64,000 bases of DNA from Escherichia coli (lineage in GTDB: Bacteria; Pseudomonadota; Gammaproteobacteria; Enterobacterales; Enterobacteriaceae), in the NCBI RefSeq assembly GCF_045037415.1, contig NZ_CP173438.1, one strand, 5' to 3'. Positions 43,301 through 46,300 of this stretch are shown piece after piece. Each line of letters starts with the position of its first letter. Within the stretch, counting starts at the first letter, position 1. The position numbers were made by a program.

Positions 43301-46300
43301 CGTCGTGAAGTTTAACGACGCGATCACCCTGATCGACGCCGGGCTGCACGATCTCGCCGATCGCTGGTCGCCCGGATCGTTCCAGCAGTTTTTGCTGACG
43401 CACTACCATATGGATCACGTGCAGGGGCTGTTTCCGCTGCGCTGGGGCGTGGGCGACACAATCCCGGTCTACGGTCCACCGGATGAGCAGGGCTGCGACG
43501 ATCTGTTTAAACATCCGGGCCTGCTTGATTTCAGCCACACGGTGGAGCCGTTTGTGGTGTTTGATTTGCAGGGGTTGCAGGTCACGCCGCTGCCGCTTAA
43601 CCATTCGAAACTCACTTTCGGCTATTTACTGGAAACGGCGCACAGCCGGGTGGCGTGGCTATCTGACACCGCAGGCCTGCCGGAAAAAACGCTGAAATTT
43701 TTACGCAATAATCAGCCGCAGGTAATGGTGATTGATTGCAGCCACCCGCCGCGCGAGGATGCACCGCGTAATCACTGTGATTTAAATACCGTGCTTGCGC
43801 TGAATCAGGTTATCCGCTCGCCACGGGTGATTCTGACCCATATCAGCCACCAGTTTGATGCGTGGCTGATGGAAAATGCACTGCCGTCGGGGTTTGAGGC
43901 GGGGTTTGATGGGATGGAGATTGAGGTGGAGTGAGGGAAAATACCCGCGCCGGCCCCTACCTCAACGCCCATACTCATCTTCCATTCTCCGCTCTTCATC
44001 TTCCAGTTGCTGACGCTCCTGATCAAGCTGGCGCTGGCGTTCGTCCAGCTGCCTGCGGCGATCTTCAAACTGGCGGCGGCGGTCATCATATTGTCTGCGC
44101 CGATCGTCGCTCACTTCACGCTGCCAGCCGTCGTCGCGCGAATCTTCATAGTCTCGCCCACGGTCAGGGTTATAAGCGTCGTTAATCGCCTGCTGAATAT
44201 TGCCAATGGTGTCATCGATAATATCGGCCTGGGCCGGAACGGTGAACAGCGTGAACAGCGTGAACAGCGTGAACAGCGTGAACAGCGTGAATAAAAGAAA
44301 TAGCGGAAAGCGTTTCATTAGCCAACCTCAAAAAGAAACTCTATCCACATTAGTCATTACTCATCCATGCAAGTAGTGGATGAATCTCAATTTCTCCGCT
44401 GCTCTATTGCCGTAATCGCCTCCACGCGTTGTTGATGACGACCGCCTTCGTACTGTGCGCCCAGCCACGCATCGACAATCATTTTTGCCAGTTCGAGGCC
44501 AACTACTCGTGAACCAAAAGCCAGCACGTTGGTGTCGTTATGCTGCCGCGAAAGTTGCGCGGAATAAGGTTCGCTACAAACGACCGCGCGAATTCCGGCA
44601 AACTTGTTCGCCGCTATCGAAATACCGACGCCAGTGCCACAAATCAAAATCCCGCCATCAGCCTCTCCGCCAGCAACGGCCAGTGCGACTTGACTGGCGT
44701 AATGCGGATAATCAGTACGCTCTGACGACCAGGTTCCTTTATCAATCACTTCAACGCCACGCTCAACTAAATGTGCCACTATTTCATGTTTTAAAATGAA
44801 ACCGACATGATCACAGCCAAATGCAATCTTTTTCATTCATCTTCCCCGCTCGCGCAAAACTTCACAATAAAAAAACATTTGTGATTTAAATGAATTAAAA
44901 ACACCCAAAATCGATGAAATCAGCCTTCCCGATCTGTTTTACAGAGTTACATCTGGCAGCGCAATAGCGTTAAAGACACTCACTATCCGGCAACATCTAT
45001 CATCTAATAAACCAGAAAAACAAATAACATCATGTTTTTAAAGTGATTAAATGAAATAAAATTTTAAGCCACTCTCCATTATTCACAATAAAACAAACTT
45101 TATAAATTTTATTTTTTTGTGAAGTTGCCAGCATCTTTTCTGTTCTTGCTGTGGTGATATAGTGGCGTCTTCAATTCAAGGACAAGAGAACGTGATGAGC
45201 CAGTCAGAGTTTGATTCAGCGCTTCCGAACGGTATCGGGTTAGCGCCTTACCTGCGAATGAAGCAGGAAGGAATGACAGAAAACGAAAGCCGCATCGTGG
45301 AGTGGTTACTCAAACCCGGTAACCTGAGTTGTGCACCCGCAATTAAAGATGTCGCAGAAGCTCTGGCGGTATCTGAAGCGATGATCGTTAAGGTATCAAA
45401 GCTGCTGGGGTTTAGCGGCTTTCGTAACTTACGCAGTGCGCTGGAAGATTATTTTTCTCAGTCAGAACAAGTATTGCCGTCCGAGTTGGCTTTTGATGAA
45501 GCGCCGCAGGATGTGGTGAATAAGGTATTTAACATCACTTTACGCACCATTATGGAAGGTCAGTCGATCGTCAACGTTGATGAGATCCACCGTGCCGCCC
45601 GCTTTTTCTATCAGGCCAGACAGCGGGATTTGTACGGTGCCGGAGGATCAAATGCAATCTGTGCTGATGTACAGCACAAGTTTTTACGCATTGGCGTACG
45701 CTGCCAGGCCTATCCGGACGCTCACATCATGATGATGTCTGCTTCGTTGTTACAGGAAGGAGATGTGGTGCTGGTGGTGACCCATTCCGGGCGAACCAGT
45801 GATGTAAAAGCAGCTGTAGAACTGGCAAAAAAGAACGGGGCAAAGATTATTTGTATAACGCATAGCTACCATTCACCGATAGCGAAGCTGGCCGATTATA
45901 TTATTTGCTCACCGGCCCCGGAAACACCGTTATTAGGTCGTAATGCCTCGGCAAGAATATTACAACTAACTTTGCTGGACGCGTTTTTTGTCTCTGTCGC
46001 CCAGCTCAACATTGAACAAGCTAATATTAATATGCAAAAAACCGGCGCAATTGTTGATTTCTTCTCACCAGGCGCGCTGAAATAAGAAAAAGGTAATTCC
46101 GCCATCGCGGAGTTACCTATCCCCTTACCGTGAGAACATGATTATGAATAAATATCTGAAATATTTCAGCGGCACACTCGTGGGCTTAATGTTGTCAACC
46201 AGCGCTTTTGCTGCCGCCGAATATGCCGTCGTATTGAAAACACTCTCCAACCCATTTTGGGTAGATATGAAAAAAGGCATTGAAGATGAAGCAAAAACGC

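Follow-up and report, generated by a model that had tools for sequence, protein, structure and literature searches.

In the Neisseria opa genes (CTCTT repeats) and in pilC (poly-G), slippage at a repeat whose unit is not a multiple of three switches the gene on and off. In humans, the 9-bp Leu-Ala-Leu insertion/deletion of APOB and the (CTG)n leucine repeat of CNDP1 change the core of a signal peptide in frame; both are reported to alter secretion efficiency, and they come in two or three common alleles with a small length range. Repeat number is also used to type E. coli: the generic MLVA loci CVN001–CVN017 (Lindstedt et al.) were applied in PMC5217547, where ten loci in O25b-ST131 proved to be absent (four), monomorphic (four) or dimorphic (two). 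Finally, in engineered proteins a longer hydrophobic core was by itself enough for a cleavable signal peptide to become a signal anchor (Chou & Kendall 1990; Nilsson et al. 1994, cited in the review PMC6589146). Compared with signal peptides, signal anchors typically have a longer hydrophobic stretch (PMC6589146), and signal sequences of high hydrophobicity engage both SRP and SecA (PMC3981701).

Here we describe a 9-bp repeat in the E. coli gene yjdP that, judged from its sequence, belongs to the known class of coding tandem repeats that vary in copy number without loss of frame, with an inferred origin in slippage. As in opa and pilC, a slippage-prone repeat lies within the part of an envelope-protein gene that encodes the leader peptide. 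Unlike in those genes, the unit is 9 bp, which is divisible by three, and all alleles are in frame, so that we rejected an on/off phase-variable contingency locus. The nearest conceptual analogues are the APOB and CNDP1 polymorphisms, in which, as in yjdP, a small repeat adds or removes hydrophobic core residues in frame; in contrast to these eukaryotic cases, yjdP spans 3–13 units and a core of 15–45 residues within one bacterial clone. It resembles the E. coli MLVA loci in being a short repeat with a strain-variable number of units (n), presumably generated by replication slippage, and in serving as a size marker. The ten loci that PMC5217547 names do not include it, and, unlike MLVA loci, it varies only in a JJ1886-type (ST131) background, being degenerate and fixed elsewhere. 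In ST131-type genomes it has 11 alleles (Simpson diversity ∼0.65 among 552 carriers of perfect Leu-Phe-Thr [LFT] arrays, calculated from the census counts below), whereas the MLVA loci are nearly uninformative there (PMC5217547). As in the engineered series, a longer core precedes an unchanged cleavage region; those proteins were polyleucine or model constructs in E. coli alkaline phosphatase or at the endoplasmic reticulum, whereas the yjdP series is natural and built from LFT. It is because of this likeness that we predict that YjdP may pass from a cleavable signal to an anchor. A full-text literature search with the repeat sequence, yjdP and ST131, whose coverage left out most subscription journals, found no description of the array.

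The window, by which we mean the whole 64-kb stretch of DNA that was analyzed, contains a period-9 tandem array of the unit GTGAACAGC (plus strand) at 44242–44291. Tandem Repeats Finder reported 5.6 copies with 100% matches, no indels and a score of 100, the highest of any tandem repeat in the window. The array lies in yjdP (43962–44318, minus strand, stop codon included; 118 aa), which sits between rpiB and phnP, as yjdP does in K-12, and is labeled yjdP in all matching RefSeq genomes. The assignment came from the ORF list and from NCBIfam NF041443 ("DDRRRQL repeat protein YjdP"), which matched residues 15–112 at 131.9 bits (E = 8.3e-39), above the equivalog cut-off of 90, placing the protein within the equivalog. 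Searches with YjdP found no significant match in Pfam-A and no relative among Protein Data Bank sequences. An ORF on the opposite strand (44007–44294, ending in ...EQREQREQREQRE) was rejected because the minus-strand product matches the NCBIfam equivalog model, and it is also disfavored by the conservation of that product across Escherichia and Citrobacter. Upstream of the start, a GAGG Shine-Dalgarno-like motif can be read from the sequence at 44326–44329 (minus strand), 7 nt from the ATG. When lipoprotein transport is blocked with a LolCDE inhibitor, yjdP is induced ∼10-fold together with known envelope-stress genes (PMC5105897).

The sole other tandem array of the window is also within yjdP: a degenerate 21-bp repeat (44036–44108, minus strand; 3.5 copies and 71% matches by Tandem Repeats Finder) that encodes DDRRRQx heptads. 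Its copy number is likewise variable across lineages and species. The YjdP allele of ECO21 has one heptad fewer (102 aa), and orthologues of 116 aa and 123 aa have additional heptads.

In codon register, the 9-bp array occupies 44241–44294 and reads, on the minus strand, TTATTCACG, four copies of CTGTTCACG and CTGTTCACC, that is, six units encoding six LFT triplets. The translated N-terminus is MKRFPLFL-(LFT)6-VPAQA|DIIDD. The original prediction had placed a fivefold repeat at 44242–44286 inside the hydrophobic core of the YjdP signal peptide, with six LFT triplets followed by VPAQA. Translation of the ORF at 43962–44318 bears out both the location and the peptide, and the predicted span coincides with the five complete plus-strand units.

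The first 31 codons (44226–44318, minus strand) form a predicted Sec-type signal peptide, with a predicted n-region MKR, a core FPLFL(LFT)6V and a c-region PAQA, which places Ala at −3 and −1; cleavage is predicted before DIIDD. Read from the translation, this is the layout of a signal peptidase I substrate, with a charged n-region, an uninterrupted hydrophobic core and small residues at −3 and −1. The predicted mature protein (43965–44225, minus strand; 87 aa) is highly charged and rich in D, R, Q and E. A lipoprotein (signal peptidase II) signal peptide was rejected because no Cys occurs anywhere in the precursor, and a Tat signal peptide because the n-region (M-K-R) contains no R-R. MKR and the VPAQA before the D are constant across alleles, and only the hydrophobic core varies; no allele lacks the −4 proline or the canonical A-x-A motif for cleavage. 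The core comprises 15 residues in K-12 and at n = 3, 18 at n = 4, 24 in the window (n = 6) and 45 at n = 13. A typical signal-peptide core is shorter than a membrane helix, and the core of the window (24 residues) and those of expanded alleles (18–45 residues) exceed that typical length. On a membrane-insertion scale that is indicative only, the best 19-residue segment scores +4.9 kcal/mol for K-12, falling to about −3.5 kcal/mol once n reaches 5. On the basis of core length and of the published core-lengthening and SRP findings, we predict that ST131 alleles are exported by Sec with greater SRP involvement, and that long alleles may be cleaved more slowly or not at all.

We counted copy number across 5426 complete E. 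coli genomes. A 451-nt query found the locus in 5404 of them, with match lengths in discrete classes spaced by multiples of 9 bp. Alleles were counted with one synthetic 260-nt query (a 40-nt flank, 20 units and a 40-nt flank) at graded E-value cut-offs, which give cumulative counts, since each further unit lowers the E-value of the best piece about 10^5-fold. Perfect LFT arrays of n ≥ 3 were found in 552 of the 5426 genomes, of n ≥ 4 in 535, n ≥ 5 in 475, n ≥ 6 in 432, n ≥ 7 in 136 and n ≥ 8 in 28, the last each listed individually; in all listed rows the matched span of the record was 80 + 9n. Counts for n = 3–7 were obtained by subtracting cumulative classes. The 552 carriers thus divide into 17 genomes with n = 3, 60 with n = 4, 43 with n = 5, 296 with n = 6, 108 with n = 7, 18 with n = 8, four with n = 9, one each with n = 10 and n = 11, three with n = 12 and one with n = 13, a few arrays with variant units being mis-binned (21AR0173, for example, has n = 8 and scores like n = 6). 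Proportions in an evenly spaced sample of 60 rows agree with this census. The distribution peaks at n = 6–7 and not near the ancestral 3, which could reflect founder effects or selection. At the protein level, synthetic YjdP sequences of n = 3–11 had no exact match in the protein collection searched, in which n = 2 was present (seven contigs), and the matches of a protein homology search were K-12-like clusters and artefacts of read-through or fusion, with no long arrays among them.

About 4870 of the 5426 genomes carry three degenerate units and show no copy-number variation. K-12, Nissle and APEC O1 read TTATTCACC CTGCTCACG CTGTCCACC (LFT-LLT-LST), and orthologues from E. albertii, E. fergusonii, Shigella and Citrobacter are likewise ∼109 aa long with degenerate cores. 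It had been anticipated that K-12 YjdP would be about nine residues shorter for want of repeat units: the length difference is exact (109 aa vs. 118 aa), but K-12 has three degenerate units rather than fewer perfect ones. The expected in-frame length polymorphism is borne out, as all alleles seen differ by multiples of 9 bp and keep the frame, and counting units across E. coli gave at least 11 copy-number alleles, so the number is not five everywhere. The polymorphism is real, but it is restricted to certain lineages, and ∼90% of genomes are without copy-number variation.

Expanded arrays come in three architectures. Architecture A, TTATTCACG (CTGTTCACG)k CTGTTCACC, is that of the JJ1886 type and spans n = 3–13. 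Architecture B, TTATTCACC (CTGTTCACG)k CTGTTCACC, occurs in Br_54_kylling (n = 12) and in 30821_1#117, where it reads TTATTCACC CTGTTCACG CTGTTCACC (n = 3); these two genomes have two flank SNPs and the first unit in common. Roughly one third of the rows in the spread sample contain a single additional mismatch, the pattern expected of architecture B, at n = 4–8, from which we infer that sub-lineages A and B both vary widely. Architecture C, TTATTCACC (CTGTTCACC)k CTGTTCACG CTGTCCACC, is found in 21AR0173 (n = 8) and FDAARGOS_536 (n = 7) on a YjdP background like that of MCJCHV-1 (three genomes at ≥99% identity); its sequence shows that here another unit, CTGTTCACC, was expanded independently. 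Each of the 13 arrays that we read yields a full-length, in-frame YjdP. An intermediate, TTATTCACC CTGTTCACG CTGTCCACC (LFT-LFT-LST), occurs in MS 57-2 and MCJCHV-1, and its class makes up four of 60 evenly spaced rows at a looser E-value cut-off (1e-19). Together these forms suggest a stepwise path from LFT-LLT-LST through LFT-LFT-LST and TTATTCACC CTGTTCACG CTGTTCACC to the expanded arrays. Architectures A, B and C would all be derivable by misalignment of the TTCAC cores of neighboring units.

To place the variation on the chromosome, we compared the flanks of the array, 19 kb per side, in ten carriers (n = 4, 5, 6, 7, 9, 10, 11, 12, 12 and 13) with the window (n = 6). Across these 38 kb, each genome has 0–3 private SNPs, with none in six of the 11 sequences (ten carriers and the window), and strain 751 has lost 32 nt of phnF. 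All 11 match the ST131 reference JJ1886, which differs from the window by one SNP; 30821_1#117 (n = 3) differs from the window by two. Because carriers with n = 3–13 differ by only 0–3 SNPs over 38 kb, the array changes far faster than its flanks. It behaves as a VNTR: in a near-identical background, head-to-tail units range from n = 3 to n = 13 between strains and change faster than substitutions accrue. Listed carriers include JJ1886, several "O25b:H4-ST131" records, 81009, U12A and a strain named "ST-131". By strain names and by the identical flanks of the 11 sampled carriers, the window represents a JJ1886-type (ST131) chromosome, and the sampling supports a restriction of expanded LFT arrays to ST131. 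The polymorphism as a whole comprises the JJ1886-type flanks (552/5426) and three genomes of another background.

Several epidemiologically linked sets have one n each (NR319/341/363, n = 8; IPCEC42/48, n = 9; also R10/R13 and CREC-U1/U3), and the locus is therefore not changing on outbreak time scales. Esc6 has n = 7 and Esc11/12/14/19/29 have n = 6, with chromosome sizes within 44 bp of one another, which suggests a recent single-unit step.

We consider it likely that the array, an in-frame repeat in the YjdP signal-peptide core, varies in copy number through slippage in certain lineages only, and that this variation is mostly near-neutral. The starting state would be the three degenerate Leu-x-Thr triplets of most E. 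coli. On an LFT-LFT-LST background, a C-to-T change in the third unit (Ser to Phe) would have created adjacent, near-identical 9-bp units, and replication misalignment of neighboring units, as the structure of the alleles implies, would then add or remove whole units. With a 9-bp unit the frame would always be kept, leaving no on/off switch, and entry of the protein into the Sec pathway is presumably retained. Alleles of n = 5 and above would have a core as long and as hydrophobic as a membrane helix, and therefore targeting probably shifts toward SRP; in long alleles, cleavage by signal peptidase may slow or fail. In our judgment, the variation is mostly near-neutral mutational noise that signal peptides are permissive enough to tolerate, rather than a selected switch.

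A different reading would make the array a selected, heritable dial or switch, in which n sets the balance between cleaved periplasmic and membrane-tethered YjdP, or the efficiency of export, and so creates envelope-stress subpopulations of ST131. The features that lend themselves to it are the drop of the best 19-residue segment to about −3.5 kcal/mol from n = 5, against +4.9 in K-12 (on the same indicative scale), a modal allele (n = 6) whose 24-residue core has the length of a membrane helix, an allele distribution well above the ancestral n = 3, and at least two independent expansions. To these can be added the conversion of signal peptides into anchors by core lengthening alone in engineered proteins (PMC6589146) and the ∼10-fold rise of yjdP beside envelope-stress genes under LolCDE inhibition (PMC5105897). 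However, all alleles keep the A-x-A cleavage site and the −4 proline, a broad and roughly unimodal n within one clone is what neutral stepwise mutation with founder effects would give, and nothing is switched on or off, as it would be at a classical contingency locus. We therefore regard a selected switch as unlikely; a selected role for the array is possible but unsupported. Equally doubtful is the more specific proposal that the N-terminus of ST131 YjdP is a membrane segment set by the repeat, with short alleles soluble in the periplasm and long ones (24–45-residue cores) anchored or hairpinned in the inner membrane. If true, it would amount to a heritable, reversible localization switch for an envelope-stress-induced protein, built from an in-frame repeat rather than from frameshifting.

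That n acts on the nucleic acid, tuning expression through mRNA structure at the start codon or through promoter activity, could be entertained given that the array begins at codon 9, near the translation-initiation region. The predicted cost of opening the region from the ribosome-binding site to +13 is nevertheless flat from n = 3 to n = 13 (10.6–11.7 kcal/mol), and a promoter and terminator scan found nothing exceeding shuffle expectation. We rejected a role in translation initiation because predicted folding at the start codon is independent of n, and hold a nucleic-acid-level role in general to be very improbable. Assembly or sequencing artefacts, by collapse or expansion of a short repeat, are scarcely credible: draft assemblies do often break in or just after the array, leaving many "partial" YjdP entries that begin at FTLFT... 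or VPAQA..., but the arrays (27–117 bp) are below typical read length, the differences are exact multiples of 9 bp in otherwise perfect sequence, the alleles recur in hundreds of genomes finished independently in many laboratories, and linked isolates have unusual n in common (NR319/341/363, IPCEC42/48, R10/R13).

Some consequences are practical. The array disrupts short-read assemblies and misleads automatic start-codon calling. One short yjdP PCR product resolves 11 alleles in ST131-type genomes and may help in subtyping ST131. Among the genomes sampled, four or more perfect LFT units occurred only with JJ1886-type flanks, plus three genomes of another type, and for this reason such arrays may act as a clone marker. 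The impact of the finding is limited by YjdP's lack of a known function. As a natural allelic series in a native E. coli protein, with cores of 15 to 45 residues ahead of an unchanged cleavage site, the yjdP alleles provide a ready test of how far the length of a signal peptide can drift before targeting or cleavage changes.

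The yjdP signal-peptide array has also expanded outside the ST131-type genomes (those with JJ1886-type yjdP flanks). Strains 21AR0173 and FDAARGOS_536 carry five and four copies, respectively, of CTGTTCACC, a unit that differs from the ST131-type unit. Their YjdP proteins read Leu-Phe-Thr (LFT) ×7 and ×6, each followed by one Leu-Ser-Thr (LST) triplet, in a background resembling that of strain MCJCHV-1 (LFT-LFT-LST), which is separate from the ST131 type. Matches to this expansion were found in three genomes of the collection. We conclude that it is independent of the other yjdP array expansions. 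A divergent YjdP N-terminus (MKRHSTLFLFTLLTLTT) was also observed in O157:H7 ATCC 43888, where a hybrid histidine kinase gene occupies the place of the allose operon and rpiB upstream of yjdP.

Repeat variation is not confined to the 9-bp leader array. The mature part of yjdP contains a degenerate 21-bp repeat (window positions 44036–44108) encoding DDRRRQx heptads, and its copy number varies too: one heptad is missing from a 102-aa E. coli allele (ECO21; many 102-aa clusters), and additional heptads are present in a 116-aa variant from Citrobacter and a 123-aa variant from E. albertii. The translated gene (window 43962–44318, minus strand) gave a second, sub-threshold NCBIfam match, to the model of the flagellar collar protein FlbB (NF047368; 25.5 bits, cut-off 110). 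This match is most likely compositional, owing to the charged, coiled-coil-like sequence of YjdP.

Long arrays mislead start-codon calling. In AREA_487, which has 13 copies of the 9-bp unit, PGAP placed the yjdP start at a CTG within the array, yielding a 110-aa protein (WP_042021723.1), and the true ATG lies 87 nt upstream; other YjdP proteins in the protein collection likewise begin with "MFTLFT...". Draft genomes moreover contributed numerous "partial" YjdP entries whose N-terminus falls inside the LFT array or directly behind it, indicating that short-read assemblies often break at the yjdP repeat; one of these partial forms is present on 21 contigs, up to 483 kb long. Exact full-length YjdP sequences with 3–11 units were not found in the protein collection, though such proteins are present in RefSeq.

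Across the 38 kb of flanking sequence compared in eleven genomes, including the window, the sole indel was a 32-nt deletion that frameshifts phnF in strain 751, an ST131 blood isolate, ∼8.2 kb downstream of yjdP. On the same phn operon side, ∼9 kb from yjdP, phnE is annotated as intact (780 nt) in these ST131-type genomes, as seen in the AREA_487 annotation. In K-12, phnE is presumably disrupted by an additional 8-bp repeat unit; if so, this 8-bp repeat would be a further slippage-prone site near yjdP.
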